Assembly: GCA_964574655.1 (NCBI GenBank)
Contig: CAZNOH010000001.1
Coordinates: forward strand, 329,852 to 393,851
Length of the DNA: 64,000 nucleotides
Reading direction: 5' to 3'
Source: an uncultured Candidatus Saccharibacteria bacterium
GTDB lineage: Bacteria; Patescibacteriota; JABMPQ01; JAQVVF01
Shown here: one piece after another, positions 2,762-62,542 of the stretch
Numbering within the stretch: the first letter of the stretch is position 1
Layout of the letters: each line of letters starts with the position of its first letter
Position numbers and translations under genes: made by a program
The notes under the pieces: model-generated
The model's database searches: none
What the model saw: only the letters and a program-made list of their open reading frames with translations
Told to the model about the DNA's origin: nothing

Positions 2762-4306
2762 ATGAGAGCAGATCAAATTAAAAATAGAAAAGATAGGATT
2801 TGTTATCGGCTGTATGAAATATTGCCAGGCTTTTTGTCTTGGGGAGTTTTGTTTGGTAGTATAGTTTTATCTTTCATACATCCTGTTTGGGTAGCTATTT
2901 TTATTATTTGTTTTGATGTTTATTGGTTGATAAAAGTGCTGTATTTGGCAGTGTATTTGCTTGTTTCTTATCGAAGGTTAAAAAAGAATGAAAAAGAAGC
3001 ATGGCTCACAAATTGCAAAAAATTGAATCCTACTGACAGGCCAAAATTTGAAGAGATCTATCATCTGGTTATTATTCCAATGGTTTTTGAAGATATTGAA
3101 ATTGTTAAGCAGACTTTTCAAGCTTTAATTTGTGCAAACTATCCGAAAGATAAGATGATTGTGGTTTTGGCAACTGAAGAGAGGGCAGGAATTTGGGCTT
3201 GCAAGGTTGCTGATCGGATAAAAGCGGAATTTGGCGATAAATTTTATCATTTTCAAGTAACAAAACATCCAGATAATATTATTGGCGAGTTAAAAGGCAA
3301 AGGATCTAACGAAACTTGGGCAGCAAAAGAAATTCGTAAATTTATTGATGAAAAAGGATTGTCTTATGAAAGTGTAATTACATCTGTGTTTGATGTTGAT
3401 ACTTGCGTACATCCAGAATATTTTGGCGTTTTGACTTATAAATTTTTGACTGTTCCTGATCATTTGCATGCTTCTTTTCAACCAGTGCCAATGTTTTTTA
3501 ATAATCTTTGGGATTCTCCGGCGTTAATGAGAATCGTGGCAATGAGTACGACTTTTTGGATGCTGATGGAGCAAGGAAGGCCAGAAAAATTGTATACTTT
3601 TTCTAGCCATAGTATGAATTTTAAAACTTTGACTGAAATTGGATTTTGGGAAACCGATGTGGTGTCTGAGGATTCAAGAATATTTTGGCAGTGTTTTAAT
3701 TATTATAATGGCAATTATCGTTGCGAGCCTTTGTTGATTCCTGTTTATATGGATACAGTTTTGGCAGGCACTTTTTGGCAAAGCGTTGTAAATCAATACA
3801 AGCAACAAAGAAGATGGGCATATGGAGCAGAAAATATTCCTTATGTTTTAACTAGATTTTCAAAAAATAAAAAGATTCCATTTTTTAAAAAGCTTGATCA
3901 TGGTTTTTGGGTGGTTGAGGGCATGTTTTCTTGGGCAACAAGCTCAATAATAATTTTTATGGCTGGCTGGTTGCCATTGTTTGTAGGTGGAGAGGCTTTT
4001 TCAAAATCATTATTAGCTCAAAATTTGCCTTATGTGACGCAAATATTAATGACAATGGCAATGTTGGGCATGATCGTTTCTGCTACTCTCAGCATGTTTA
4101 TGCTTCCTCCAAGGCCAAAGAGACATGGGCAACACAAAATATTATTTATGTTGTTGCAATGGATTTTATTGCCGATTTCAACAATTTGTTTGGGTGCTTT
4201 TCCAGCATTAGATGCGCAAACTAGATTAATGTTTGGAAAATATATGGGATTCTGGGTGACTGAAAAGTCAAGAAGGCGTGAGCCAGAAGTAAAAAGTCAA
4301 AATTAA
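2762..4306 (+). CDS. membrane-bound family-2 glycosyltransferase (processive, cellulose-synthase-like)
   Basis: N- and C-terminal TM helices; cytoplasmic domain with DxD-like (FDVDT) and QxxRW motif (QQRRWAYG). Confidence 0.55.
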   Translation: MRADQIKNRKDRICYRLYEILPGFLSWGVLFGSIVLSFIHPVWVAIFIICFDVYWLIKVLYLAVYLLVSYRRLKKNEKEAWLTNCKKLNPTDRPKFEEIYHLVIIPMVFEDIEIVKQTFQALICANYPKDKMIVVLATEERAGIWACKVADRIKAEFGDKFYHFQVTKHPDNIIGELKGKGSNETWAAKEIRKFIDEKGLSYESVITSVFDVDTCVHPEYFGVLTYKFLTVPDHLHASFQPVPMFFNNLWDSPALMRIVAMSTTFWMLMEQGRPEKLYTFSSHSMNFKTLTEIGFWETDVVSEDSRIFWQCFNYYNGNYRCEPLLIPVYMDTVLAGTFWQSVVNQYKQQRRWAYGAENIPYVLTRFSKNKKIPFFKKLDHGFWVVEGMFSWATSSIIIFMAGWLPLFVGGEAFSKSLLAQNLPYVTQILMTMAMLGMIVSATLSMFMLPPRPKRHGQHKILFMLLQWILLPISTICLGAFPALDAQTRLMFGKYMGFWVTEKSRRREPEVKSQN

Positions 4307-4388
4307 AAAATAAAAAGTTACAAGTAAAAATTAAAAAGAACTGCATTCGTTTTTTACTTTTGCCTTTTTATTTTTAACTTTTTAATTT

Positions 4389-6041: not shown

Positions 6042-6080
6042 CTACCCAACTTTAGTTGGGGTTCGGAAAGCTTTAGTTTT
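6042..6080. repeat. REP-like element: CTAC + hairpin CCAACTTTAGTTGGGG + TTCGGAAAGCTTTAGTTTT tail, immediately 3' of amidohydrolase gene
   Basis: Family members at 15097, 31798, 34267 with compensatory stem changes. Confidence 0.6.
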
Positions 6081-6134
6081 CATGACTTGGAAATTAAGAA
6101 ATTGACTAATTAAATTGGTTGGATTATTCTGATT

Positions 6135-6168: not shown

Positions 6169-6972
6169 ATGCAAAAAATAGTTTCTGAAAAATTAAGTAA
6201 ATATAAAAATCTAGTTCAAAGTTTGTCTATCGGTGACTTTGGGAGATTGAGATTCGGAGAGGATAAAAGCGAAAGTCATATAAAACAGATTATTAAGAAT
6301 AGAGAAGAGTATTTTAAAAATTTTGGTGTTGATTTGAAAAATGTGGTAATGCAGAATCAAGTTCATGGAACTAATATTTCTTTAGTTTCTAAAAATGATT
6401 GCGGAAAAGGTGTATTTGGTCCCAAAACTTATGTTAAAGATAGTGATGGATTAATTACAAAAGATAGAAATGTTTTTTTAGTGTGCTTTACGGCTGATTG
6501 CTTGCCCGTTTCTTTTTATGACCATAAGCTAAAAATTTGTGGCATTGCTCATTCTGGCTGGAAAGGAACTTTAAATAATATTGTTGGCAAAATGATTAAT
6601 GAATTTGAAAAATTGGGCAGTAATGCAAAAGACATTATTGTTTATATTGGACCAGCAATTGGCAAATGTTGTTATGAAGTGAGCAAGGCTAAGGATAATA
6701 GAATCGCAAGATTTGAAAAATTCCTTCTTGGTCTGAAGCCTGCCTGCTCGGTAGGCAGGGCCAAGCCACAAGAAGAGTTGATTATAAAAAAAGAAAATAA
6801 AGCATATATAGACTTGAAAAAAATCGTTAGAGTAGAATTATTGGATGCCGATATTAAGAAAGAGAATATTGAAATCTCGGAAATTTGTACTAGTTGTGAT
6901 GAGCGGTTTCCGTCTTATCATCGAGATTTGGAATGCAAGGCTGATTTGTTGAGCGTGATTGGGATGAAATAG
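6169..6972 (+). CDS. pgeF: PgeF/YfiH family protein (DUF152 purine nucleoside phosphorylase / polyphenol oxidase-like)
   Basis: FLVCFTADCLPVSFYDHKLKICGIAHSGWKGTL...IGPAIGKCCYEV conserved Cys/His motifs; contains in-frame 52-nt palindrome at 6724..6775. Confidence 0.6.
   Translation: MQKIVSEKLSKYKNLVQSLSIGDFGRLRFGEDKSESHIKQIIKNREEYFKNFGVDLKNVVMQNQVHGTNISLVSKNDCGKGVFGPKTYVKDSDGLITKDRNVFLVCFTADCLPVSFYDHKLKICGIAHSGWKGTLNNIVGKMINEFEKLGSNAKDIIVYIGPAIGKCCYEVSKAKDNRIARFEKFLLGLKPACSVGRAKPQEELIIKKENKAYIDLKKIVRVELLDADIKKENIEISEICTSCDERFPSYHRDLECKADLLSVIGMK
6724..6775. repeat. intragenic in-frame GC-rich palindrome (CTTCTTGG..CCTGCCT-GCTCGGT-AGGCAGG..CCACAAGAAG) inside pgeF
   Basis: Nested stems read directly; encodes LLGLKPACSVGRAKPQEE; contains GTAG. 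Confidence 0.5.
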
Positions 6973-7132: not shown

Positions 7133-8620
7133 ATGACAATAGAAGATCTAAAAAAGAAAAATATCCATGTTTTAGGCGTTTCTGGTGCTGAAGGAAGCGC
7201 GGTTTTGGAATTTTTGGCAGATAATGGCATTAAGAATATTACTGCTCATGATTTTTGCGATGAAGATAAATTTAAAGAAAGTTTTTTTTCTTTTCATGAT
7301 AGGTTGAATAAAAAAGAAAAAGAATCAGCTTTTGAAAAAGTCTTCCGCCTTCGCCAAGGCTTTGGCGGACAAGGAAAAATAAAGTTTAATTATAAAGATA
7401 CTTATCTTGACCAAGTTGAAAAGGCTGATCTTGTTTTTGTGCCACAATCTTGGTTCAGATATCCACAAAATAGCGTTTTGCATCAATACAAAGGTAGGAT
7501 TGAATTTTCCAATATTACTAAATTGTATTTTCAATTTTGTAAAGGAAAAATAATCGCAGTAACTGGAACTTCTGGAAAATCAACAACATCGGCATTAGTG
7601 AATGATGTAATGAAGAGAGGTTACAAATCAGGCAAAGTTTATTTTACTGGCAATGATCGCGAAAATGTCCAAGTATTAAATGATATTTTTGAAATAAAAG
7701 AAAATGATATTCTAGTTTTGGAAGTCAGTAATAGACAATTGATGATTGACTTAAAAAAAAGTCCTCATATCGGAATTATTACTAATATTTCGCCAAATCA
7801 TATGGATGATCATAAGACTTTTACTGATTACATTACGACAAAAAGAAGTTTGCTTAGATATCAGAAAAAGGATGATTTTGCGATTTTGAATTTTGATAAT
7901 GATATTACAAAAGATATCGGCTTAGATATTGATTCTACTGTTTATTTTTTTTCAAGAAAAGGCAGAGTTGATCGAGGCGCATATGTCAAATTTAATGAAA
8001 TAACTATTTTAGATGGTGCAAGAGAAAAAAGAATTTGTTCAGTGTTAGATCTCAAAATTCCTGGTCCACATAATATTGAAAATTCTTTGGCTGCAAGTTT
8101 AGTTGGCTATCTGATGGGAATTAATACAAAAGACATTAGAGAAGCGTTGTTAGGGTTTAAAGGAATAAAGTCTAGGTTGGAATTAGTAAAAGAAATTGAT
8201 GGTATTTCATATATAGAAGATTCTTCAGCTTGTAATCCTGAAGGGGCTGCTGTTGCTGTTTCTTCTTTTAGAAAACCGATGCTATTGATTGCCGGAGGTT
8301 CAAGGAAAAAACCTTATCCCGGAGAGTTTGATCGCATGGCTGATTCTGTAATTAATTCTAAAGTAAAAATGGCATTCCTTATTGGAGAAAGAGCAGAAAC
8401 AATAAAGCAGGCTTTGAAAAATTCAAGCATTAGATTTCAGAAAGCTGGTCCAATAATTAAAATTTGTGATAGCTTGGAGGATGCAGTGATATCTGCTAGC
8501 AAGTCAGCAAAAAAGGGTGATATAGTAATTATGTCTCCTGGTTGCGAAAGTTTTGGAATGTTTATTGATTATAGAGACAGAGCAAAGCAGTTTAAACGTT
8601 TGGTTAAAAACCTGGGTTAG
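7133..8620 (+). CDS. murD: UDP-N-acetylmuramoylalanine--D-glutamate ligase
   Basis: Mur ligase P-loop VTGTSGKSTTSAL, position before ftsW; carries in-frame palindromic insert at 7342..7378. Confidence 0.75.
   Translation: MTIEDLKKKNIHVLGVSGAEGSAVLEFLADNGIKNITAHDFCDEDKFKESFFSFHDRLNKKEKESAFEKVFRLRQGFGGQGKIKFNYKDTYLDQVEKADLVFVPQSWFRYPQNSVLHQYKGRIEFSNITKLYFQFCKGKIIAVTGTSGKSTTSALVNDVMKRGYKSGKVYFTGNDRENVQVLNDIFEIKENDILVLEVSNRQLMIDLKKSPHIGIITNISPNHMDDHKTFTDYITTKRSLLRYQKKDDFAILNFDNDITKDIGLDIDSTVYFFSRKGRVDRGAYVKFNEITILDGAREKRICSVLDLKIPGPHNIENSLAASLVGYLMGINTKDIREALLGFKGIKSRLELVKEIDGISYIEDSSACNPEGAAVAVSSFRKPMLLIAGGSRKKPYPGEFDRMADSVINSKVKMAFLIGERAETIKQALKNSSIRFQKAGPIIKICDSLEDAVISASKSAKKGDIVIMSPGCESFGMFIDYRDRAKQFKRLVKNLG
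7342..7378. repeat. intragenic in-frame palindromic element (TCCGCC-TTCGCCAAGGCTTT-GGCGGA-CAAGGAAAA) in murD
   Basis: Near-identical copy in murC at 12821..12860 with compensatory stem change; encodes RLRQGFGGQGK. Confidence 0.65.
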
Positions 8621-8624
8621 ATGT

Positions 8625-8700
8625 TTTAAATACAAAAAATTCTAAATTCTAAACACAAAATTCTAAATAAACTCAAAAAATTAAATTACAAAATTGCGAT
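8625..8700. repeat. intergenic AAATTCTAAAT / AAATTACAAAAT repeat cluster (inverted copies at 8735..8765)
   Basis: aaattctaaattctaaacacaaaattctaaataaactcaaaaaattaaattacaaaattg; same units occur in-frame inside secA. Confidence 0.5.
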
Positions 8701-8776
8701 TATGGCGTTGGTTTTGGTAATTTTTATTTTGTATTTTTAATTTATTTAGAATTTAGGATTTAGAGTTTTTAAAAGA

Positions 8777-9883
8777 ATGCAAAAACAAAAACCAGATTAT
8801 GTTTTTCTTGTCGTAGCACTAATTTTAGTGGTTTTTGGTTTGATTATGTTGTCTTCAGCAAGCGTTGTTTTGTCGTATCAGAATTTTGGCAATAATTATT
8901 ATTATTTTACTCATCAGCTTTTGTTTGGAGTGCTGATCGGATTAGTTGCAATGTTTGTTTGTTACAAAATTGATTATCATAACTGGAAAAAGTTTGCAGC
9001 ATTGATGTTAATTCTGACTTTGGTTTTGTTGGTCTTGGTTTTTATTCCAGGACTTGGTTTTGAATATGGAGGTGCGAAAAGATGGGTCAATTTGGGTCCC
9101 TTTGGGACCATTCAACCAACAGAAATTGCAAAATTAACTTTTCTTTTATATTTGGCAACTTGGCTAGACAAGAGATCTCAAGGAATAAAGGATTGGAAAT
9201 ATAGCTTTGCGCCATTTTTGCTTATGCTTGCTGTTGTTGGAACTTTAATAGTATTGCAACCCGATGTTGGTACAATGACAGTAATTATCTTAATGTCAAT
9301 CGTTGTGTATTTTGTGGCAGGAGGTAAAATAACGCATTTGGCAGTTCTGGGAGTGGGCGCTGTCTTGATCATGATGCTGTTGATAAAAATTGCGCCTTAT
9401 AGAATGTCACGTTTTACAGTGTTTTTAAATCCAGAACTAGATCCGCAGGGCATTGGTTATCAGATAAATCAATCTTTATTGGCCGTAGGATCTGGCGGAA
9501 TTTTGGGTAGAGGCTTGGGCAAGAGTATACAGAAACATAATTATTTGCCAGAGGCGTCTGGTGATTCTATTTTTGCTGTCATTGCTGAAGAAATGGGTTT
9601 TATTAGAATAATTTTCTTGTTATTACTTTTCTTATTTTTTACGTATCTTGGATTTAGAATTGCAAAAAGAGCGCCAGACATGTATGGAAAACTAATCGCA
9701 GCAGGAATTACAGCATGGGTAGCTTTGCAGGCTTTGATTAATATGTCAGCAATGATCTCTTTGATTCCCTTGACTGGCATTCCTTTGCCTTTTATATCTT
9801 ATGGTGGATCAGCGATTATTTCTTTGTTAGCGGCGTGTGGGATAATGTTGAATATTTCAAAGCAGTCGAGAGTTTCGGATTAA
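8777..9883 (+). CDS. ftsW: cell division protein FtsW (SEDS family)
   Basis: 10 TM helices, conserved SEDS motifs (GGAKRWV, SGGILGRGLG, PEASGDSIFAVIAEE). Confidence 0.8.
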   Translation: MQKQKPDYVFLVVALILVVFGLIMLSSASVVLSYQNFGNNYYYFTHQLLFGVLIGLVAMFVCYKIDYHNWKKFAALMLILTLVLLVLVFIPGLGFEYGGAKRWVNLGPFGTIQPTEIAKLTFLLYLATWLDKRSQGIKDWKYSFAPFLLMLAVVGTLIVLQPDVGTMTVIILMSIVVYFVAGGKITHLAVLGVGAVLIMMLLIKIAPYRMSRFTVFLNPELDPQGIGYQINQSLLAVGSGGILGRGLGKSIQKHNYLPEASGDSIFAVIAEEMGFIRIIFLLLLFLFFTYLGFRIAKRAPDMYGKLIAAGITAWVALQALINMSAMISLIPLTGIPLPFISYGGSAIISLLAACGIMLNISKQSRVSD

Positions 9884-9932
9884 ATTCTCTAATTCGATCT
9901 CTAATTCGCCTAATAAAATCTCTAATAATTTA

Positions 9933-9965
9933 AATCCTGATCTTTTTGACTTCAGGGTTTTTTTG
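9933..9965 (+). terminator. rho-independent terminator after ftsW (hairpin AATCCTGA...TCAGGGTT + T7)
   Basis: Stem-loop followed by TTTTTTT. Confidence 0.45.
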
Positions 9966-9980
9966 TATTATATTGGAATT

Positions 9981-11588
9981 ATGAAAATACTTTTAGCAGG
10001 CGGAGGAACTGGCGGGCATATTATGCCTATTTTGGCTACAGTAAAGCAAATAATAAGAATAAATCCTGAGACGCAATTTTTATGGATAGGAACGAAAAAG
10101 GGTCCGGAAGCAAGAATTGCTCGCGATAATAAAATTGAGTTTAAGGCTGTTTTGGCTGGTAAAATGAGACGCTACGTTTCATTTTGGAATCTTGTTGATT
10201 TGATTAAGTTGCCTTTAGGTGTTGTGCAAGCTTATTTTAAAGTAAAAAAATTCAAGCCAGATGTTTGTTTTAGCAAGGGCGGATATGTAAGCGTTCCAAC
10301 TGTTCTTGCTTGCCATCATTTTAAAATTCCAGTTTTATTACATGAATCAGATATAATTGCTGGCAAATCAAATTTGTTTATGGCGAAATATGCCAATAAA
10401 ATTGCTTTAGGTTTTGAAGAAGGCAAGCAGAGTTTTAAAGATTATTCCAATAAAGTTGTTATTACTGGCAATCCAGTACGTGATGAAATTTTGTCAGCAA
10501 ATAGAGAAAATGGTTTAAAAGATTTTAAATTGAATAATAATAAGCCAGTTTTGTTGATAATGGGTGGGAGCCAAGGCGCTCAAAGAATAAATGAATTAAT
10601 TGGTCAAGTTTTGCCCAAGTTTTTGGAAAAATGGCAAATTATTCATCTTGTTGGTCCAGAGCATGGAAATCAAATTTTAGGAAATCTGGGTGCATTGGAG
10701 AATGATTATCATGTTTTTAAATTTTTGGATGGAAAAAAGATGGGCGAGGCTTTAGCAGTTGCGACATTAATAGTTTCAAGGTCTGGTGCTAATAGTTTGG
10801 CGGAAATTGCAGCATTGGGCAGACCAGCAATATTAATTCCATATCCTCATTCTGCAGGCGATCATCAAAAAATCAATGCTGATATTTATGCTAAAAATAA
10901 TGCAGCGATTGTCTTGGATGAGAAGGATCTGACTCCAGAAAAACTATTGAAAGAAATTAATAATTTGTTAATAGATAAAGGAAAATTAGAAAAATTGCAG
11001 TTAGCGATGTTAAAAATGTCTAATAAAGAGGCGAATAGCAAGTTAACAACTGAAATTTTAGCTTTGGCCAAATCAAAAAATGTTTTGGCTAAAAAGAATA
11101 AGAAGATTTTAGTGTTTGTAGAGGGTACTATTTTGATGCAAAAAAAAGCTTTTGGTGAAAGTCGTGATAAAATTGTTTTGCAGGTTAAAAATAACGATCC
11201 TTCAATTGATGATTTTGCTAATTATATTATGATTGGCCAAGCAAATTTGAAATTAAAAAAATGGCAAGAGCAAGGCGCAAAAATTTTGTATTTAACTTCA
11301 AGAACTTTGGCTGAAGAAGTTGCTCAGATCGGTGAAGTCTTGGCTAAAAATAATTTTCCAGAAGGTGATTTATTCTATAGAAAAGAAAATCAGCAATATA
11401 AAGATATTGTTGAATATATAAAGCCAGATATTTTGATTGAAGATGATTGTGAAAGTATTGGTGGAATAAAAGAGATGGCTATTTCTCAAGTTAAGCCAGA
11501 AATTAAAAATAATATTAAATTAATTGTTGTTAAAGAATTCGCTGGCATTGATAATCTTGTGGATGAAATTTCTGATTTGATGAAATAA
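9981..11588 (+). CDS. murG: UDP-N-acetylglucosamine--N-acetylmuramyl-(pentapeptide) pyrophosphoryl-undecaprenol N-acetylglucosamine transferase with ~180-aa C-terminal extension of unknown function
   Basis: MKILLAGGGTGGHIMPIL N-terminus; GT28 motifs (HESDIIAGKSN, GGSQGA); extra C-terminal domain after ~residue 365. Confidence 0.75.
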   Translation: MKILLAGGGTGGHIMPILATVKQIIRINPETQFLWIGTKKGPEARIARDNKIEFKAVLAGKMRRYVSFWNLVDLIKLPLGVVQAYFKVKKFKPDVCFSKGGYVSVPTVLACHHFKIPVLLHESDIIAGKSNLFMAKYANKIALGFEEGKQSFKDYSNKVVITGNPVRDEILSANRENGLKDFKLNNNKPVLLIMGGSQGAQRINELIGQVLPKFLEKWQIIHLVGPEHGNQILGNLGALENDYHVFKFLDGKKMGEALAVATLIVSRSGANSLAEIAALGRPAILIPYPHSAGDHQKINADIYAKNNAAIVLDEKDLTPEKLLKEINNLLIDKGKLEKLQLAMLKMSNKEANSKLTTEILALAKSKNVLAKKNKKILVFVEGTILMQKKAFGESRDKIVLQVKNNDPSIDDFANYIMIGQANLKLKKWQEQGAKILYLTSRTLAEEVAQIGEVLAKNNFPEGDLFYRKENQQYKDIVEYIKPDILIEDDCESIGGIKEMAISQVKPEIKNNIKLIVVKEFAGIDNLVDEISDLMK

Positions 11589-11609
11589 AAAACCCAAAAA
11601 ATATTTGGG

Positions 11610-11843
11610 TTAGTGCAAAGTAGAAGCAAGCGCAAGTTGAAGAGCTAAATTAGCTAAAATCAGTCCAGTGACAAGCGTTGGTTCGTTGATGCGAAGGGTG
11701 AGCTGACTTGCAATGTTGGAAGTTCCTTGGAAACTGATAACTTCAAGGCAAGGTTTACCGTCATCGAAAAAATTCAGAGGATTATTTAGACTTTTGACGA
11801 GCTGTTCGAGTTGCTTGCTAGTCAATTTGATTGTTGCGAGCAT
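11610..11843 (-). CDS. small hypothetical protein with hydrophobic C-terminus
   Basis: Strong SD GGAGGGGAAATG upstream of ATG; GC content higher than neighbours. Confidence 0.4.
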   Translation of the reverse strand: MLATIKLTSKQLEQLVKSLNNPLNFFDDGKPCLEVISFQGTSNIASQLTLRINEPTLVTGLILANLALQLALASTLH

Positions 11844-11908
11844 TTCCCCTCCTTTTTTCTTTGCAGTTTGAAAAAGCAGGACAACTTATTATATTCTCTA
11901 CTTATATT

Positions 11909-13204
11909 ATGTCAATAAATTTAGAAAAAATCAAGAAGGCGTATTTTATTGGTATCGGCGGAATTGGTGTTTCGGCTGTTGCTAGAATTTTTATGGAAAA
12001 AGGAATCCAAGTTTTTGGATCTGATTTGGTTGAAAGTATAGTTACAAAAGATTTAATTAAAAAAGGTGCTAAGATTTTTATTGGCAAACATAATGCAAAA
12101 AATTTGCAAGATGATGTTGATTTAGTTATCTATACTGTGGCAACGGAAAATGATAATCCAGAATTAGTTAAGGCTATTAAATTAAAAATTAAAACATTAA
12201 GCTATCCTCAAGTTTTGGGTGAATTAACAAAAAATAAATATTTGATTGCAGTATCAGGTACTCATGGAAAGACAACGACGACGGCGATGATTGGATTAAT
12301 GTTAGTAAGAGCAGGCATGGATCCAACCGTGATTGTTGGATCAAACATCAAAGAATTTGGTGGTAATGCAAGATTGGGTAAAAGCGATTATTTTGTTATT
12401 GAAGCAGATGAATACAGAAGAGCATTTTTAAATTATAATCCAAAGATTGCAGTTGTTTTAAATATTGAATTTGATCATCCTGATTGCTATAAAAATTTAG
12501 ATGATGTGAAAGATGCTTTTGATATTTTTATGGCTAAGGCTGATTATATTGTTGATCATCCAGAAAATTTAATAAATGATTTAGATTTAAGATTAAAAGT
12601 GCCTGGAAAAGGTTTTTTGCTTGATGCGCTGTCTGCTCGTGAAGTTGGTAGAATTTTGGAAATTGATGATAAAATAGTTAAGGAAAGTTTGGAAAACTAT
12701 CAAGGTTCTTGGCGGAGATTTGAGATAAAAGGTGAAGTTAATGGAGTAATTGTCATTGATGATTATGCTCATCATCCAACAGAAGTAAAATCAACTTTGC
12801 AGGCGGCAAAAGAAAAATATCCGACCCGCCTTCGCCAAGGCTCCGGCGGGCAAGGTAAAAATATTATTTGTGTTTTTCAACCGCATCATCAAGATCGATT
12901 TAATGCATTGTTTGATGAATTTGTTAATTCTTTTAAAGATTGCGATAAATTAATTTTGACGGATGTGTATCATGTGGCAGGACGTGAATCGCGAATAAAC
13001 ACAAATGCTCTTCGGGTTACAAATAGCACAAAAAAAACCTCTAAAGAATTGGCTGAAAAAATTGGTGGAAAGGCTGTTTATGTTGGGTCTTTAGATAAGG
13101 CTTTGGAATGGCTGACTAAAAATGTTAAAGCTGGCGATGTTGTGATTACGATGGGAGCTGGAGACGTGACAAAAATAAGCGATGAATTGGTTAAGAAATT
13201 ATAA
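11909..13204 (+). CDS. murC: UDP-N-acetylmuramate--L-alanine ligase
   Basis: YFIGIGGIGVSAVARIF N-terminus, P-loop SGTHGKTTTTAM; in-frame palindromic insert at 12821..12860. Confidence 0.8.
   Translation: MSINLEKIKKAYFIGIGGIGVSAVARIFMEKGIQVFGSDLVESIVTKDLIKKGAKIFIGKHNAKNLQDDVDLVIYTVATENDNPELVKAIKLKIKTLSYPQVLGELTKNKYLIAVSGTHGKTTTTAMIGLMLVRAGMDPTVIVGSNIKEFGGNARLGKSDYFVIEADEYRRAFLNYNPKIAVVLNIEFDHPDCYKNLDDVKDAFDIFMAKADYIVDHPENLINDLDLRLKVPGKGFLLDALSAREVGRILEIDDKIVKESLENYQGSWRRFEIKGEVNGVIVIDDYAHHPTEVKSTLQAAKEKYPTRLRQGSGGQGKNIICVFQPHHQDRFNALFDEFVNSFKDCDKLILTDVYHVAGRESRINTNALRVTNSTKKTSKELAEKIGGKAVYVGSLDKALEWLTKNVKAGDVVITMGAGDVTKISDELVKKL
12821..12860. repeat. intragenic in-frame palindromic element (CCCGCC-TTCGCCAAGGCTCC-GGCGGG-CAAGGTAAAA) in murC
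   Basis: Homolog of murD insert; encodes RLRQGSGGQGK. Confidence 0.65.
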
Positions 13205-15096: not shown

Positions 15097-15139
15097 CTAC
15101 CCAACTTTTGTTGGGGTTCGGCAAACTTTAGTTTGCAGG
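15097..15139. repeat. REP-like element CTAC-CCAACTTTTGTTGGGG-TTCGGCAAACTTTAGTTTGCAGG
   Basis: Member of the 6042 family, 3' of FG-GAP phosphoesterase gene. Confidence 0.6.
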
Positions 15140-15144
15140 AGGTT

Positions 15145-15178
15145 GAGATATTTTAATATTAAGATATTTGGGTATTAG
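15145..15178 (+). promoter_or_regulatory. GATATT tandem array (gagatattttaatattaagatatttgggtattag) immediately upstream of murB
   Basis: Shared motif family. Confidence 0.3.
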
Positions 15179-17023: not shown

Positions 17024-17116
17024 TTATTATTGTTATTCTGTAGCTTTGCGAGGAATCCCAAAATTATTTTTAATAACGGGATCTCTCGCCGCGGCTCGAG
17101 ATGACAGAAATTTTTT

Positions 17117-19960
17117 ATGGCATTTAATTTTTTAAAAAAAATATTTGGTGATCCAAATAAGCGAGTTTTAGATCAGCTCGCTCCTTTGGTTGAAAAAATA
17201 AATTCATTAGAGCTGGAAATAAAGAAACTATCGGCTGATGAATTAAAATCTAAAACTCAAGAATTAAAATCGGAATTAAAAAATGGCAAGACTCTAGATG
17301 ATATTTTGCCGAAAGCTTTTGCATTGGTTCGTGAAGCTTCAAAAAGAACAACAAAGATGCGACATTTTGATGTTCAGCTTTTGGGTGGAATAGTTCTTCA
17401 TCAAGGAAAGATTTCGGAAATGAAAACTGGTGAAGGAAAAACATTAGTTGCGACATTGCCATTATATCTTAATGCTTTGTTAGGCAAGGGCGCGCATTTA
17501 GTAACTGTAAATGATTATTTGGCAAGACGTGATACTGTTTGGATGGGACAGATATATAATGCATTAGGGTTAAGTGTTGGCTGTATTCAGCATGAGCAGG
17601 CATTTGTTTATGATCCTAGTTTGAAAAATCCTAAATCCCAAATCCTAAATCCTAAACAAATTACAAATAACAAATTACAAAATTCTAATGACGACGAAAC
17701 TGCTGGCGAACTTGATGAAGAGCGGGATGAGATGGGAAGTTTTAAGGTTTTTCATGAATTTTTACGGCCAGTTACTCGTAAAGAAGCATATTCGGCTGAT
17801 ATCACTTATGGAACAAACAATGAATATGGTTTTGATTATTTGAAAGATAATATGGTTGCAGAATTGTCTGAAAAAGTGCAAAGAGATTTTAATTTTGCGA
17901 TTGTTGATGAAGTTGATTCTATTTTGATTGATGAAGCGAGGACTCCTTTAATTATTTCTGCACCGGCTGAAGAGGCAGTTGATTTGTATAATCAATTTGC
18001 TAGATTAATTCCAAAATTAGAAGAAAACAAAGATTATAATATTGATGAAAAAATGCGGGCAGCAACTTTGACAGATGCTGGAATTGCAAAATTGGAAAAG
18101 ATGTTGGGTTTAAAAAATATTTATGAGGAAAAGGGCATTGAGGTTGTACATCATATAGAACAAGCTTTGAAAGCTCATACTCTGTTCAAAAGGGATAAAG
18201 ATTATGTTGTTAAAAATAATGAAGTAATGATTGTTGATGAATTTACTGGAAGATTAATGCCAGGCAGACGTTTTTCAGAAGGTCTGCATCAAGCATTGGA
18301 AGCAAAAGAAAATGTGGCGATTCAAAGAGAATCAAGGACATTGGCAACGATTACTTTCCAAAATTATTTTAGGATTTATAAAAAATTAGCTGGCATGACT
18401 GGAACAGCGGCAACGTCAGCTGAAGAATTTTCGAAAGTTTATAAATTAGATGTTGTTATAATTCCTACAAACAAACCGTTGGTCCGTAAAAATTTGAATG
18501 ATTTGGTTTATAAAAATGAATTAGGAAAATATATTGCAGTTGTTAAAGATGTGAAAGAGAGGAATAAATTAGGCCAGCCAGTTTTGATTGGCACTATATC
18601 GATTGAAAAAAATGAAAGACTGGGTCAGATGCTAGAAGATGAAGGAATAAAATGCAATGTTTTGAATGCTAAGAACCATGAAAAAGAAGGAGAAATAATT
18701 GCTCAAACTGGAAAAATGGGAGCTGTGACTGTTGCTACAAATATGGCAGGTCGTGGTGTAGATATTATTTTAGGCGGAGTGCCTTTGAATAAAGAAGAAG
18801 CCAAAAAAGTTTGCGATTTAGGAGGTCTTCATGTGATTGGAACAGAAAGGCATGAAGCACGAAGAATTGACAATCAGCTAAGAGGACGCGCCGGACGTCA
18901 AGGCGATCCTGGTTCTTCGCAATTTTTTGTTTCCATGGAAGATGACTTGATGAGAATATTTGGTTCAGACAGAATGAAAGGAATGATGGATACTTTGAAA
19001 TTGCCAGATGATCAGCCAATTGAACATGGATTGATTTCAAGATCAATTGAAGCAGCACAAAGCAAAGTTGAAGGTAATAATTATGATATTAGAAAGCATG
19101 TTTTGGAATATGATGATGTAATGAATAAACATCGCGAAGTTATTTATAAAAAGCGTAATAATGTTTTATTGGCATGGGAGCGTGAAAAATTAAAAGCTAC
19201 AAATTCTAAATCTCAAATCTTGCCTACTGGTAGGCAAGTAGATGACAAATTACAAAATACGAATTCGAAACAACTGACAACTAAAGAAATAGTTTTACAA
19301 TATGTTGAAGATGAGATTGATCAGGTTGTAACTAATCATACTGGAGCAGAAGAAGTAGAAAATTGGAATTGTGAAGAAATTTATGAATCGATTAATTCTA
19401 TTTTTTCAGTTTCAAGCGAGATCCATATTGAATTAAAAAATTTAGCTAAGAAAGCTGGAAATGAAAAAAATGGCGCGGAAGCGAGGACAATAATTATAAA
19501 TTATCTTCTAGGCTTGATGAAGAAGGCTTACGATGTTAAAGAAAAAGAAAATGGATATGAAGGAATGCGACAGATTGAAAGAGCAGTATTGCTTCGAACT
19601 ATTGATTCTTTGTGGATGGATCATCTTGATGCTATGGAGTATATGAGAGAGGGAATTGGTTTAAGAGGTTTTGGTCAAAAGGATCCATTAGTTGAATATA
19701 AAAAAGAAGCATTTGGAATGTTTGGCGCTTTATTGGCAGAAATTCAAAATCGAGTTGTTTACACAATTTTTAAAGTTGGTATTGTTACACAGCAAGTATC
19801 TCCGATGCAAAAAGCAAAACAGCAAATGCAAACTTCTGGAGCAGAAAAAGGCGAAGATTCTAAAATTTTGCCGGAACGGGTTGATGAGATAGGTAGAAAT
19901 GAGCCGTGTCCTTGCGGTTCAAAAAGAAAATATAAGAAATGTTGTGGTAAAGATAAATAA
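17117..19960 (+). CDS. secA: preprotein translocase ATPase SecA, with two in-frame repeat-derived insertions
   Basis: DEAD motor motifs, C-terminal Zn finger CPCGSKRKYKKCCG; insertions at 17625..17700 and 19193..19285. Confidence 0.9.
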   Translation: MAFNFLKKIFGDPNKRVLDQLAPLVEKINSLELEIKKLSADELKSKTQELKSELKNGKTLDDILPKAFALVREASKRTTKMRHFDVQLLGGIVLHQGKISEMKTGEGKTLVATLPLYLNALLGKGAHLVTVNDYLARRDTVWMGQIYNALGLSVGCIQHEQAFVYDPSLKNPKSQILNPKQITNNKLQNSNDDETAGELDEERDEMGSFKVFHEFLRPVTRKEAYSADITYGTNNEYGFDYLKDNMVAELSEKVQRDFNFAIVDEVDSILIDEARTPLIISAPAEEAVDLYNQFARLIPKLEENKDYNIDEKMRAATLTDAGIAKLEKMLGLKNIYEEKGIEVVHHIEQALKAHTLFKRDKDYVVKNNEVMIVDEFTGRLMPGRRFSEGLHQALEAKENVAIQRESRTLATITFQNYFRIYKKLAGMTGTAATSAEEFSKVYKLDVVIIPTNKPLVRKNLNDLVYKNELGKYIAVVKDVKERNKLGQPVLIGTISIEKNERLGQMLEDEGIKCNVLNAKNHEKEGEIIAQTGKMGAVTVATNMAGRGVDIILGGVPLNKEEAKKVCDLGGLHVIGTERHEARRIDNQLRGRAGRQGDPGSSQFFVSMEDDLMRIFGSDRMKGMMDTLKLPDDQPIEHGLISRSIEAAQSKVEGNNYDIRKHVLEYDDVMNKHREVIYKKRNNVLLAWEREKLKATNSKSQILPTGRQVDDKLQNTNSKQLTTKEIVLQYVEDEIDQVVTNHTGAEEVENWNCEEIYESINSIFSVSSEIHIELKNLAKKAGNEKNGAEARTIIINYLLGLMKKAYDVKEKENGYEGMRQIERAVLLRTIDSLWMDHLDAMEYMREGIGLRGFGQKDPLVEYKKEAFGMFGALLAEIQNRVVYTIFKVGIVTQQVSPMQKAKQQMQTSGAEKGEDSKILPERVDEIGRNEPCPCGSKRKYKKCCGKDK
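17625..17700. repeat. in-frame tandem-repeat insertion in secA (AAATCCTA/AAATCCCA x4 then ACAAATTACAAATAACAAATTACAAAAT)
   Basis: Units match intergenic repeat at 8625..8700; encodes NPKSQILNPKQITNNKLQNS. Confidence 0.55.
19193..19285. repeat. second in-frame repeat insertion in secA containing perfect palindrome CTTGCCTACTGGTAGGCAAG flanked by ACAAATTCTAAATCTCAAATC and ACAAATTACAAAAT
   Basis: Shares ACAAATTACAAAAT with first insertion and the 8690 intergenic copy. Confidence 0.55.
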
Positions 19961-31797: not shown

Positions 31798-31872
31798 ACG
31801 ACCCAACTTTTCACCCTGCGGGTGATCAACCGAAGGTTGAAGTTGGGGTTCGGCAAACTTTAGTTTGCAGGG
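31798..31872. repeat. REP-like element with nested hairpin: CGACCCAACTT-[CACCCTGCGGGTG..]-AAGTTGGGG-TTCGGCAAACTTTAGTTTGCAGGG
   Basis: Same tail as 15097 copy; 3' of preceding gene. Confidence 0.55.
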
Positions 31873-31915
31873 TTAGGGAATTTGTAGATGAATATTAATA
31901 ATTAGTTTTAAAATC

Positions 31916-33564: not shown

Positions 33565-34280
33565 TAGTTTATAAAGTTAAATTAGAAAAATTTGAAGGAC
33601 CTTTGGATTTACTTTTAGATTTGATTGAAAAAGAAAAAATGGATATTACCCATGTTTCTCTTTCAAAAGTAACAGATGATTATCTAAAGTATCTAGAAAG
33701 TTCAGAGGGAATTAATCCAAGCATCTTGGCTGATTTTTTGCATGTGGCTGCTCAATTAATTTTAATAAAGTCAAGAAATCTTTTGCCAGAAATTAATTTA
33801 GGAACAGATGAGGAAGTGTCAGCAGCTGAATTGCAAGCTAGATTGATGCAATACAAAAAATATAAAGATTTGTCATTAAAGATTCAAGAATTATATGGCA
33901 AGAACATTTCTTTTGAGCAAAAATTTAGTATGCAAAAAATTGATGCTTTTTATCCTGGCAAGACTTTGGATTTTAAAAATATGAATTTAGCTTTGGTTGA
34001 TTTGTTAGGCAGATTTGAAAAGCTAGTTGTTTTGGAAAAGAAAATAATTAAAAAGGCTGTTTCGATTAAAGAAAAAATTGTTTATATAAAAAGTTTGATT
34101 TTAAAACAGGCAAAATTTAAATTTCATGATTTGATAAAAAATAAAAAATCAAAAACTGAAACAATTGTTTCTTTTTTAGCATTATTAGAATTAGCAAAAC
34201 AGCATTTTTTGTTTGTACAGCAAGACAAAATTTTTGGCGATATTTCAATAAATAATTCTTCGGATTCTACCCGGCTTTAG
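33561..34280 (+). CDS. scpA: segregation and condensation protein A
   Basis: KLEKFEGPLDLLLDLIEKEKMDITHVSLSKVTDDYLKYL. Confidence 0.75.
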   Translation: MIVYKVKLEKFEGPLDLLLDLIEKEKMDITHVSLSKVTDDYLKYLESSEGINPSILADFLHVAAQLILIKSRNLLPEINLGTDEEVSAAELQARLMQYKKYKDLSLKIQELYGKNISFEQKFSMQKIDAFYPGKTLDFKNMNLALVDLLGRFEKLVVLEKKIIKKAVSIKEKIVYIKSLILKQAKFKFHDLIKNKKSKTETIVSFLALLELAKQHFLFVQQDKIFGDISINNSSDSTRL

Positions 34281-34336
34281 CCGAGGGGTCGGAAAGCTTT
34301 AGCTTTCGTCACTTGTGAACTGAAGTTCACCGACCC
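34267..34336. repeat. REPIN-like doublet: CTACCCGGCTTTAGCCGAGGGGTCGG ... CCGACCCTTTGGCTAAAGCCAAGTAG (two inverted REP copies), overlapping scpA stop
   Basis: Second copy is reverse complement of first with compensatory changes; GTAG/CTAC at outer ends. Confidence 0.6.
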
Positions 34337-35016: not shown

Positions 35017-35595
35017 ATGGGAAAGTATTTCAGACCGTCATGGGATGATTATTACATGGCGATTGCAAAGATTATTGGGACAAGAGGGACTTGCGACAGA
35101 TTGAGGGCTGGAGCAGTATTGGTGAAAAACAAAAGGATTATTTCAACTGGATATAATGGCGCGCCTCCAGAATTAGGACACTGCGATGATATTGGTCATT
35201 TGATGGAAGAAGGTCATTGCGTTAGAACAATTCATGGCGAGCATAATGCTATTTTGCAAGCCGCTGTTTTGGGCAGTACTTCAACTGTTGGATCAATATT
35301 ATATACTCTTTATAATCCTTGTATTCATTGCGCAAAATATGTTGTGATGGCTGGTATAAAAAGAATAGTAATTGGACAAATTTATCGTGGAGAAAAAGCA
35401 TTAGATTATTTGAAAAAAGCTGGATTAGAAGTCGAATTATACAAACCAAGCGCTGAATGGGATAGAAATTTATTAAAACTTTTTTCTGCTGATATCGAAA
35501 AAGTTGAGGCAAAGGAAGGAAATGTGAAATTAAGCGAAGATAAGATTGATGATTTGAATATTGTACAGCCTAATCAAACAGTCAGGCCGTTATAA
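35017..35595 (+). CDS. dCMP deaminase (ComEB-like cytidine/deoxycytidylate deaminase)
   Basis: HGEHNAI and PCIHCAKYVVMAGIKRIV zinc-binding motifs. Confidence 0.75.
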   Translation: MGKYFRPSWDDYYMAIAKIIGTRGTCDRLRAGAVLVKNKRIISTGYNGAPPELGHCDDIGHLMEEGHCVRTIHGEHNAILQAAVLGSTSTVGSILYTLYNPCIHCAKYVVMAGIKRIVIGQIYRGEKALDYLKKAGLEVELYKPSAEWDRNLLKLFSADIEKVEAKEGNVKLSEDKIDDLNIVQPNQTVRPL

Positions 35596-35600
35596 TTTTG

Positions 35601-35677
35601 TGTCATCCCGAACCGCTGTGAGGGATCCCGTTATCGAGTAAATAATCACGGGATTCTTCGCTTCGCTCAGAATGACA
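35601..35677. repeat. 77-nt hairpin element with TGTCATYCTGAG-type terminal inverted repeats (copy A)
   Basis: TGTCATCCCGAACC...CTCAGAATGACA; inverted copy at 36297..36375. Confidence 0.55.
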
Positions 35678-38861: not shown

Positions 38862-38871
38862 AGCGTAAATT

Positions 38872-38900
38872 GTAGAGACGCCCAAATTGGGCGTCTGTAC
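38872..38900. repeat. REP-like GTAG palindrome GTAGAGACGCCCAAATTGGGCGTCTGTAC (identical copy at 62511)
   Basis: Perfect 11-bp stem; related copy GTAGAGACGTTGCAATGCAACGTCTCTAC at 635..663. Confidence 0.6.
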
Positions 38901-38912
38901 AAAAATAAAAAA

Positions 38913-40049: not shown

Positions 40050-40161
40050 AAAGTCCGGATCTTGCACTTGTGAAACAAGCTATGAAAGTTGTCCTTATTG
40101 TAGTGCTTATACCAAATTCAGCGAATGTGTTCTAGCTAAAAAACTATTTGTTTGTCTAGCT

Positions 40162-40227
40162 GGTTGCAGAGTCCTCTCTGCAACCACATTATCGCGTTGA
40201 TTTGGTTTCAGAGAGGACTCTGAAACC
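40162..40227 (+). other. twin perfect hairpins GGTTGCAGAG-TCCT-CTCTGCAACC and GGTTTCAGAG-AGGA-CTCTGAAACC with mutually complementary loops
   Basis: Read directly; G/T difference compensated in stem. Confidence 0.45.
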
Positions 40228-40298
40228 AGCATCGCAACAGATTAAATGAATTTGGTATTATAAAAGTAGTTTCGGCAATCATAGATAATAAGTTCTTT

Positions 40299-62073: not shown

Positions 62074-62514
62074 ATGCGGATCGAAAGCGTATTTCAAAAT
62101 GGAGAAAAAATTCCTTCCAAATATACTTGTGATGGCGAGAATATTAATCCGCCTTTAAAATTTAGCGATGTACCAGAAAATACAAAAAGTTTGGCTATTA
62201 TTTTTGATGATCCTGATTCACCGTCAGGTACTTGGACTCATTGGACTATTTTTAACATTGATCCAAAAGTAATTGAAATAATAGAAAATAATGTGCCTGA
62301 AAATTCTGTTTTAGGCAAAACAACTTTTAGTGATGTTAAATATGGCGGACCTTGTCCTGGATCTGGCGAGCATCGATATGTTTTTAAGTTGTTTGCTTTG
62401 GATATGGTGTTAGATCTAAAACAAGGGGCTGATATTTCTGAGTTAGAAAAAGCAATTGAGGGACATATAATAGAAAAAGCGGAGTTGATGGGAAAGTATG
62501 AACGAATTATGTAG
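62074..62514 (+). CDS. YbhB/YbcL family PEBP-like protein
   Basis: DDPDSPSGTWTHW and GPCPGSGEHRYVFKLFALD motifs. Confidence 0.7.
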   Translation: MRIESVFQNGEKIPSKYTCDGENINPPLKFSDVPENTKSLAIIFDDPDSPSGTWTHWTIFNIDPKVIEIIENNVPENSVLGKTTFSDVKYGGPCPGSGEHRYVFKLFALDMVLDLKQGADISELEKAIEGHIIEKAELMGKYERIM

Positions 62515-62539
62515 AGACGCCCAAATTGGGCGTCTGTAT
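62511..62539. repeat. REP-like palindrome GTAGAGACGCCCAAATTGGGCGTCTGTAT; its GTAG supplies the TAG stop of the PEBP gene
   Basis: Identical to 38872 copy. Confidence 0.6.
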
Positions 62540-62542
62540 TAA

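Follow-up and report, generated by a model that had tools for sequence, protein, structure and literature searches.

The genes murD and murC, which encode two essential peptidoglycan ligases, were examined in an uncultured Candidatus Saccharibacteria bacterium of the candidate phyla radiation (CPR). The DNA analysed was a 64-kb stretch of contig CAZNOH010000001.1 (assembly GCA_964574655.1), here called the window, and all positions refer to it. Both genes belong to one operon, and each holds, inside an intact open reading frame (ORF), one copy of a 30-nt GC-rich palindromic unit. The genes and the parts of the two copies are the following.

7133..8620, + strand: murD, UDP-N-acetylmuramoylalanine--D-glutamate ligase, 495 aa; assigned from the ORF, Pfam Mur_ligase_M/C on the identical database protein, the names of orthologues and PDB MurD matches.
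7344-7373, + strand: copy 1, in murD, TCCGCCTTCGCCAAGGCTTTGGCGGACAAG; TCCGCC 5' arm at 7344-7349, TTCGCCAAGGCTTT loop at 7350-7363, GGCGGA 3' arm at 7364-7369, CAAG tag at 7370-7373.
11909..13204, + strand: murC, UDP-N-acetylmuramate--L-alanine ligase, 431 aa from the ATG at 11909; assigned from the translation and relatives, the identical database protein and PDB MurC matches.
12825-12854, + strand: copy 2, in murC, CCCGCCTTCGCCAAGGCTCCGGCGGGCAAG; CCCGCC 5' arm at 12825-12830, TTCGCCAAGGCTCC loop at 12831-12844, GGCGGG 3' arm at 12845-12850, CAAG tag at 12851-12854.

The two copies share strand and reading frame and are identical at 26 of 30 bases. They differ in the outer stem pair, which is T..A in murD and C..G in murC and thus compensatory, and in two loop bases (TT versus CC). 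A preliminary description of this DNA had reported the same palindromic element in frame in murD and murC. Both strings were found and both ORFs are intact, but the starts had been placed at 7342 and 12821 instead of 7344 and 12825, and the common bases had been counted as about 28 of 30. The 16-mer CCGCCTTCGCCAAGGC occurs exactly twice in the window when up to 3 mismatches are tolerated, compared with a chance expectation of 0.04 (100 shuffles, none of which gave two occurrences). A third copy of the unit was not found in the window at up to 10 mismatches over 27 specified bases. The inserted blocks have a GC content of about 70%, while that of the window is 32.4%. Two independent short-read assemblies, SRR13723393 and SRR13723394, matched the window DNA, including the murC copy, with 0 mismatches.

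Both copies are translated as RLRQG(F/S)GGQGK. Copy 1 is read as RLRQGFGGQ(G) at about residues 71-81 of MurD, and copy 2 as (T)RLRQGSGGQ(G) at about residues 305-316 of MurC. At 7358-7381 and 12839-12862, the unit and the next lysine codon of the host gene together spell G(F/S)GGQGK, which resembles a Walker A motif. This G-x-G-G-Q-G-K string is an accident of frame that depends on the host lysine codon, and it could mislead motif-based annotation.

The inserts were compared with orthologous proteins and with the DNA of relatives. In an alignment of 24 MurD sequences, the peptide FRLRQGFGGQG was present in the window protein only, and 23 of the 23 others read K-I-K-x-L/F at this place. The nearest MurD orthologues, from Patescibacteria with 88% identity, are 9 residues shorter. 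The peptide TRLRQGSGGQG was likewise confined to the window protein in an alignment of 25 MurC sequences, where it lies between EKYP and KNI and is absent from the 24 others; PDB MurC structures have a 10-residue gap at the position of the insert. At the DNA level, the empty murC site of relatives L001, L004 and L161 reads GAAAAATATCCTGATAAAAATATT and the window has GAAAAATATCCGA, the unit and GTAAAAATATT, which is a net gain of 30 nt. In murD, relatives L001 and L003 have 9 nt where the window has 33 nt, a net gain of 24 nt. A target-site duplication was not visible at either site in these DNA alignments. Both copies were acquired after the split from relatives with about 88% identity in MurD and 79-83% in MurC. 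Lineage-specific insertion, for which the preliminary description had proposed alignment with orthologues, is therefore seen in the peptides missing from the 23 other MurD and 24 other MurC sequences as well as in the empty sites.

The location of the inserts was investigated in AlphaFold models, as had also been proposed. The MurD insert lies at the end of a helix (60-75) and in the loop before a strand (84-86) in the N-terminal domain, upstream of the P-loop GTSGKST (144-150). In MurC the insert follows shortly after DDYAHHPTE, in the C-terminal domain, and is modelled as coil that links helix 290-303 to strand 318-324. Mean pLDDT was 91 for MurD, with 72 for the block containing the insert, and 89 for MurC, with values below 50 at residues 309-313. 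In these otherwise confident models both inserts are thus predicted as low-confidence loops. They lie at non-homologous sites, as first described, and the conserved motifs of MurC and MurD are kept despite the inserts. A second segment of very low confidence was observed in MurC at residues 361-372 (about 12989-13024, the RINTNALRVTNSTKK region); this is an ordinary variable loop and no hairpin insert, since it is AT-rich and its length varies among orthologues.

The consensus of the unit is Y-CCGCC-TTCGCCAAGGCTNC-GGCGG-R-CAAG, a GC-rich imperfect palindrome. Flank statistics over 123 copies gave Y-CCGCC-TTCGCCAAGGC-T[T/A/C/G][C/T]-GGCGG-R-CAAG, with the outer Y/R pair being T-A in 62, C-G in 35 and T-G in 8 of the copies. 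The 30 nt are composed of a 6-bp stem, a 14-nt, partly self-complementary loop and an unpaired 3' CAAG. The stem was assessed by scanning viral contigs with loop and tail fixed and the arms left free, and the alignment was not filtered. The scan returned alternative complementary arms, among others TCCTCC/GGAGGA, TCCGAC/GTCGGA, GGCTGC/GCAGCC, GCCTAC/GTAGGC and CCCGGC/GCCGGG. All six pairs were changed on both sides, and 78.9% of cells were paired, compared with 57% after shuffling (0 of 500 shuffles as high) and 33-48% in slid controls. The compensatory T/C and A/G change that keeps the 6-bp stem of the two mur copies, pointed out in the preliminary description, is part of this covariation across the whole family. 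With the arms fixed and the loop free, variants including TTCGCTAAAGCTAC and TTCGCCGAGGCTAC were recovered, and loop positions 6 and 9 covaried as CG/TA/GC (1 of 2000 shuffles as high). As both the arms and the inner loop pair covary, all 26 nt before the CAAG make up the imperfect palindrome.

The length of 30 nt is supported by the murC gain of exactly this size. In alphaproteobacterial repeats of the form GGATTGC...CGCAATGAC the spacer measures 11 nt when empty and 41 nt with the unit nested in it, and in AT-rich CPR loci the GC-rich block has sharp edges 30 nt apart. Stop codons are absent from all six frames of both window copies and of the common TTC variant; in the TAC and TAT loop variants one reverse frame is interrupted by a TAG. 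The reverse strand of some TAC-loop variants includes a GTAG, which lies within the loop and does not form an end tag.

The pattern CCGCCTTCGCCAAGGCNNNGGCGG, with 21 specified bases, was searched in contigs representing one genome per species, where at least 120 loci matched. By our own estimate, between 0.3 matches (uniform composition) and about 6 (all genomes at 65% GC) would be expected by chance. The hosts among the matches listed include Acidobacteriota, Verrucomicrobiota/PVC, Alphaproteobacteria, Bacteroidota, ten lineages of Patescibacteria and others, and the cultured isolates among them are several Bradyrhizobium, Bdellovibrio sp. HCB288 and Reyranella soli. The pattern also matched 35 stretches of environmental viral contigs. 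About five of the matches listed, with non-T loops, are ordinary coding matches; two of these, the homologous loci L030 and L101, presumably lie in carB. The same variants of stem and loop were seen in every phylum sampled. The family is thus very widely distributed and not specific to this genome, and it is apparently undescribed: cmscan of the window and six element-rich loci against Rfam 15 found no relevant family at E ≤ 1, a full-text literature search did not find the sequence string of the unit in this context (its single match was unrelated), and literature searches gave nothing specific on CPR/Patescibacteria with REP (repetitive extragenic palindromic) or palindromic in-frame insertions. 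The preliminary description had also named the possibility that the similarity is confined to the two mur genes by gene conversion. The abundance of the unit at unrelated sites, in many genomes and genes, rules out that gene conversion between the two mur genes alone produced the similarity.

In larger, GC-rich genomes the unit has a layout like that of REPs, with singletons, tandem clusters and nesting in another repeat; the Acidobacteriota have inverted doublets of the unit and a diverged inverted copy. Other genomes hold 2-5 copies per 8-kb locus, and the window holds 2 copies per 64 kb, both intragenic. The flanks of the loci were unrelated in an all-against-all BLAST of 400-nt flanks. A larger parent element was considered and rejected, as the only similarities in this comparison were to other short modules of repeats and to a small number of homologous genes and phages.

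Identical 7-nt flanks, a candidate target-site duplication, were present at 6 of 95 copies (0.12 expected). They are explained by tandem arrays of about 7 nt, which were clear in five cases and only approximate in L072, and the candidate was dropped: inside arrays of such a short period the flanks match anyway, so that no duplication is needed. Strictly periodic flanks were found at 4 of 190 copies, compared with 3 of 2998 control positions. Some hairpins of non-CPR genomes and viral contigs (L060, L054, L032, L147, L226 and L185) were also surrounded by tandem repeats with a period of 6-8. The window itself has intergenic tandem arrays of heptamers (AAATTCT, AAATCCT and similar) at 8635-8770, 17624-17684, 2194-2340 and 4273-4388, some of which form long AT-rich inverted repeats.

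In low-GC genomes the unit was found inside long ORFs, for which Pfam gave LeuRS (two copies), RadA, a GT1 glycosyltransferase, UvrC, PriA and RarA/MgsA; in genes of this set, which belong to other CPR genomes, the unit is read in frame. Both orientations are present at these loci and all six reading frames are used. At the glycosyltransferase and RarA sites there are gaps of about 9-10 residues relative to PDB homologues. At an S1-domain and an NlpC/P60 protein the copies precede the domains that were recognised, and they may be upstream of the true start codons. In the LeuRS gene of a Roizmanbacteria genome (L079) two copies, at 6901-6930 and 7969-7998 of that locus, lie 1,068 nt apart on the same strand and in the same frame; one has the C..G form and the other the T..A form, mirroring murC and murD. 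Replication and repair proteins are prominent among the host genes (RadA, UvrC, PriA and RarA; L072, L116, L105 and L115), which echoes a remark on intragenic REPs in passages of a published survey (PMC3733652).

Among known elements, the unit was compared with REPs and the hairpin-forming REP doublets (REPINs). REP superfamilies marked by a GTAG or CGTC tag are described in passages of Di Nocera et al. (2013; PMC3733652), which also state that some REPs lie wholly within ORFs, often in replication or repair genes, recalling in this connection the in-frame Rickettsia palindromic elements (RPEs). The unit resembles REPs in being an imperfect palindrome within 20-40 nt, in having alternative complementary stem variants with some G-T pairs, and in occurring as singletons, inverted dimers and clusters with no target duplication. 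It is also occasionally wholly intragenic and then often in replication or repair genes, here RadA, UvrC, PriA and RarA, as the same passages report for REPs (PMC3733652). Mention is made there of repeats in Bradyrhizobium that have "large GCGG/CCGC loops up to 27 bp" (PMC3733652), and these may be the unit nested in another REP. In contrast to REPs, the unit has a 3' CAAG and no GTAG or CGTC tag, and its conserved part includes the 14-nt loop. Near-identical copies are spread over five or more phyla and viral contigs, whereas a REP family usually stays within one species or genus, and the copies in this CPR window are intragenic, whereas REPs are mostly extragenic.

An analogy to RPEs had been drawn in the preliminary description. 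It holds for the in-frame residence in intact genes, but not for the length: RPEs measure about 100-150 bp (30-50 aa), are known only from Rickettsia and are close in composition to the host genome, whereas the unit has 30 nt (10 aa), stands out as strongly GC-rich from its AT-rich host and is spread across phyla, so that a mini-hairpin of the REP type is closer. This comparison is with the description of RPEs. The likeness consists in palindromic repeats that, according to passages of PMC3733652, lie in frame in ORFs which probably still code for working proteins, in a reduced genome, and add a peptide segment.

Two further kinds of element share single features with the unit. Some of the GC clusters of yeast mitochondria lie in frame in var1, and the clusters have characteristic flanking duplications, which are absent around the unit; they also differ in being organellar and unrelated in sequence. 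As short GC-rich palindromes in a very AT-rich genome, regarded as mobile DNA in passages of PMC4478555, they are a compositional analogue. The miniature transposable elements with inverted repeats (MITEs; Correia/NEMIS, Nezha, ERIC and others) are, like the unit, non-autonomous repeats that sometimes lie inside genes. MITEs make target duplications, and the unit differs from them in having no such duplication, no terminal inverted repeats derived from an insertion sequence and no larger parent element. In passages of PMC3733652 they are given as 70-300 bp long, with terminal inverted repeats of 15-30 bp.

In our judgement each of the two mur sites probably holds one copy of a discrete, REP-like 30-nt hairpin that belongs to a widespread family and is carried in the gene as a tolerated passenger. 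The mobility of the unit we infer from its distribution. The unit would insert with no target-site duplication, and its length of ten codons would leave the frame unshifted. As the TTT and TCC loop variants are stop-free in six frames, they would be readable within coding sequence. Ten codons and no stops would allow the passenger to survive in permissive surface loops of essential genes. The genome, of 654 kb, is gene-dense with little intergenic space, and coding loops may be among the few places where the unit can persist.

As to how the unit moves, its features resemble those of REPs and IS200/IS605-type elements, namely the lack of target duplication, the hairpin with an unpaired terminal tetranucleotide, the inverted doublets and an orientation bias. 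Of 136 copies, 86 have CAAG at the 3' end of the strand that is locally richer in G (binomial p = 0.003), and this also applies to both window copies. By analogy to "peel and paste" transposition of IS200/IS605 and to REPs with their REP-associated tyrosine transposases (RAYTs), the hairpin might be moved as single-stranded DNA by a trans-acting enzyme, or else be captured from imported DNA, with no function for MurC or MurD; we hold this step of the explanation with low confidence. Its second branch, in which a CPR cell that scavenges DNA captures foreign DNA with the hairpin, would be the alternative to enzymatic movement.

Several observations weigh against a REP-like passenger that arrived separately at the two sites. 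The murD gain is 24 nt and not 30, so that a loss of 6 nt must be assumed. The unit ends in Y...R-CAAG, its reverse strand begins with CTTG, and there is no GTAG or CGTC end tag. A RAYT was not found by tblastn in 1.3 Mb of loci and the window (best E = 1.1) with a YafM sequence as an unverified probe, which makes this a weak test. The near-identity across phyla requires frequent horizontal spread or a shared constraint, and REP families are usually bound to a species or genus. PLSDB plasmids and INPHARED cultured phages contained no full copy, BLAST of the consensus giving only partial matches at chance level. Finally, the only two copies in the window lie in one operon, in paralogous genes and on the same strand and frame, which is somewhat unexpected for random independent arrivals, and the copy count for the source genome comes solely from the 64-kb window.

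The last point is shared by a second explanation, in which a single primary insertion into one mur gene was copied over 5.5 kb to the paralogue by local transposition or by short-patch ectopic gene conversion, the point changes, including the compensatory pair, being acquired later. We consider this unlikely, although it would account for the position of the sole two copies of the 64 kb in paralogous ligase genes of one operon, and although the Roizmanbacteria LeuRS gene with two same-frame copies 1,068 nt apart hints at local hopping. The two mur copies disagree at 4 of 30 positions, two of them being the partners of the outer pair. The T..A, C..G, TTT and TCC forms already circulate in the wider family, so that separate acquisition needs fewer steps. 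Homology by which conversion could be driven is missing from the flanks, the two domains concerned are non-homologous, and the shared frame, with a prior of 1 in 6, is not significant. The independent insertion of a mobile palindrome, as claimed in the preliminary description, agrees with the separate sites and the wide family; strict independence is likely, but one copy may have seeded the other locally.

A third explanation is that the hairpin or the peptide has a function, either in mRNA processing, stability or translation pausing within the long dcw transcript, or as a Gly-rich G-x-G-G-Q-G-K loop aiding the ligases. For an AT-rich transcript the two window copies fold stably (-15.2 and -16.3 kcal/mol), the stem covariation shows that pairing is kept across the family, the orientation bias towards the G-rich strand could reflect transcription, and REPs are reported to act as RNA elements in passages of PMC3733652. 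However, the fold z-scores are only -2.3 and -1.7, and neither window hairpin was flagged as a terminator when both strands were checked. Unrelated genes hold the unit in both orientations and in all six frames, so that neither one peptide nor one sense-strand RNA is conserved. Close relatives fare well although they lack the unit, the models show the inserts as floppy loops at a distance from conserved motifs, and the Walker-like string depends on the host lysine codon and on the frame. A role of the peptide or of an mRNA hairpin in MurC and MurD is therefore unlikely, given the variation in frame and orientation between host genes, the relatives that lack the insert and the modest z-scores, and we give this explanation little credence. 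An artefact, in which mis-assembly, chimeric reads from GC-rich community members or contamination produced the GC-rich blocks, might be suspected in a metagenome-derived genome whose blocks look foreign in composition, with about 70% GC compared with 32% in the genome. It is highly unlikely because the two independent assemblies agree with 0 mismatches, and further because neither block disrupts the reading frame of its essential gene and the unit is present in the isolate genomes of Bradyrhizobium spp., Bdellovibrio sp. HCB288 and Reyranella soli.

The window contains other repeats and features besides the 30-nt unit. One hairpin, detected by a scan for GC islands, lies one gene upstream of murD.

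6737..6769, + strand: hairpin in pgeF/yfiH (ORF 6169..6972), CCTGCCTGCTCGGTAGGCAGG, followed by GC and CAAG; peptide KPACSVGRAKPQ.

This GC-rich hairpin, which like the mur inserts lies in frame in its gene, folds at -20.2 kcal/mol and belongs to a family distinct from the 30-nt unit. It is present in the 81%-identical relative L003 with one loop change, and is thus older than the mur inserts; PDB homologues have a gap of about 10 aa at its position. The idea that it represents a second widespread CAAG-tagged family was dropped, as its pattern was absent from viral contigs.

GTAG-tagged palindromes, TGTAGAGACGCCCAAATTGGGCGTCTGTACA, are present in near-identical form at 38871-38901 and 62510-62540, immediately upstream of gene starts, with a variant at 634-664; they look like classical GTAG-type REPs in a CPR genome. 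An intergenic repeat, (A/T)GTTGGGGTTCGGCAAACTTTAGTTTGCAGG, has four copies (6054-6095, 15109-15150, 31841-31882 and 34280-34321). Two GC-rich modules (GGGATCTCTCGCCGCGGCTCGAGATGACA-like) at 17073-17121 and 35586-35634 are inverted relative to each other, 18 kb apart, 80% complementary and outside long ORFs. At 40159-40230 there is a near-perfect palindrome of 36+36 nt with no spacer and 86% complementarity, whose sole Rfam match was a chance-level miRNA. The MurG ORF (9963..11588) encodes 541 aa, compared with 535 aa in relatives, and has an extension of about 170 residues past the glycosyltransferase-28 domains.

In-frame palindromic passengers are already known from Rickettsia and a few REP families. 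Here, such a passenger measures only 30 nt and is found in two essential peptidoglycan ligases of a CPR bacterium. For practical purposes, GC-rich blocks of this kind should not be taken for functional motifs. If the unit moves between phyla, it would be among the smallest mobile units known. It would then also account for some of the odd ten-residue loops rich in Gly, Arg and Ala, and for some of the spurious small ORFs, that are met in metagenome proteins, and its copies would serve as natural markers showing where essential enzymes, MurC and MurD among them, permit insertions. More broadly, we tentatively suggest that the "CAAG-tagged" 30-nt hairpin may represent a pan-bacterial class of ultra-small mobile DNA, which could colonise coding sequence owing to its ten codons and stop-free common loops. 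It would cross phyla, possibly via phages or DNA uptake, by a strand-specific mechanism acting on single-stranded DNA, and CPR bacteria would carry it mainly as ten-residue loops of housekeeping proteins. If this is true, lineage-specific insertions in the proteins of reduced genomes would have a general source in this class.

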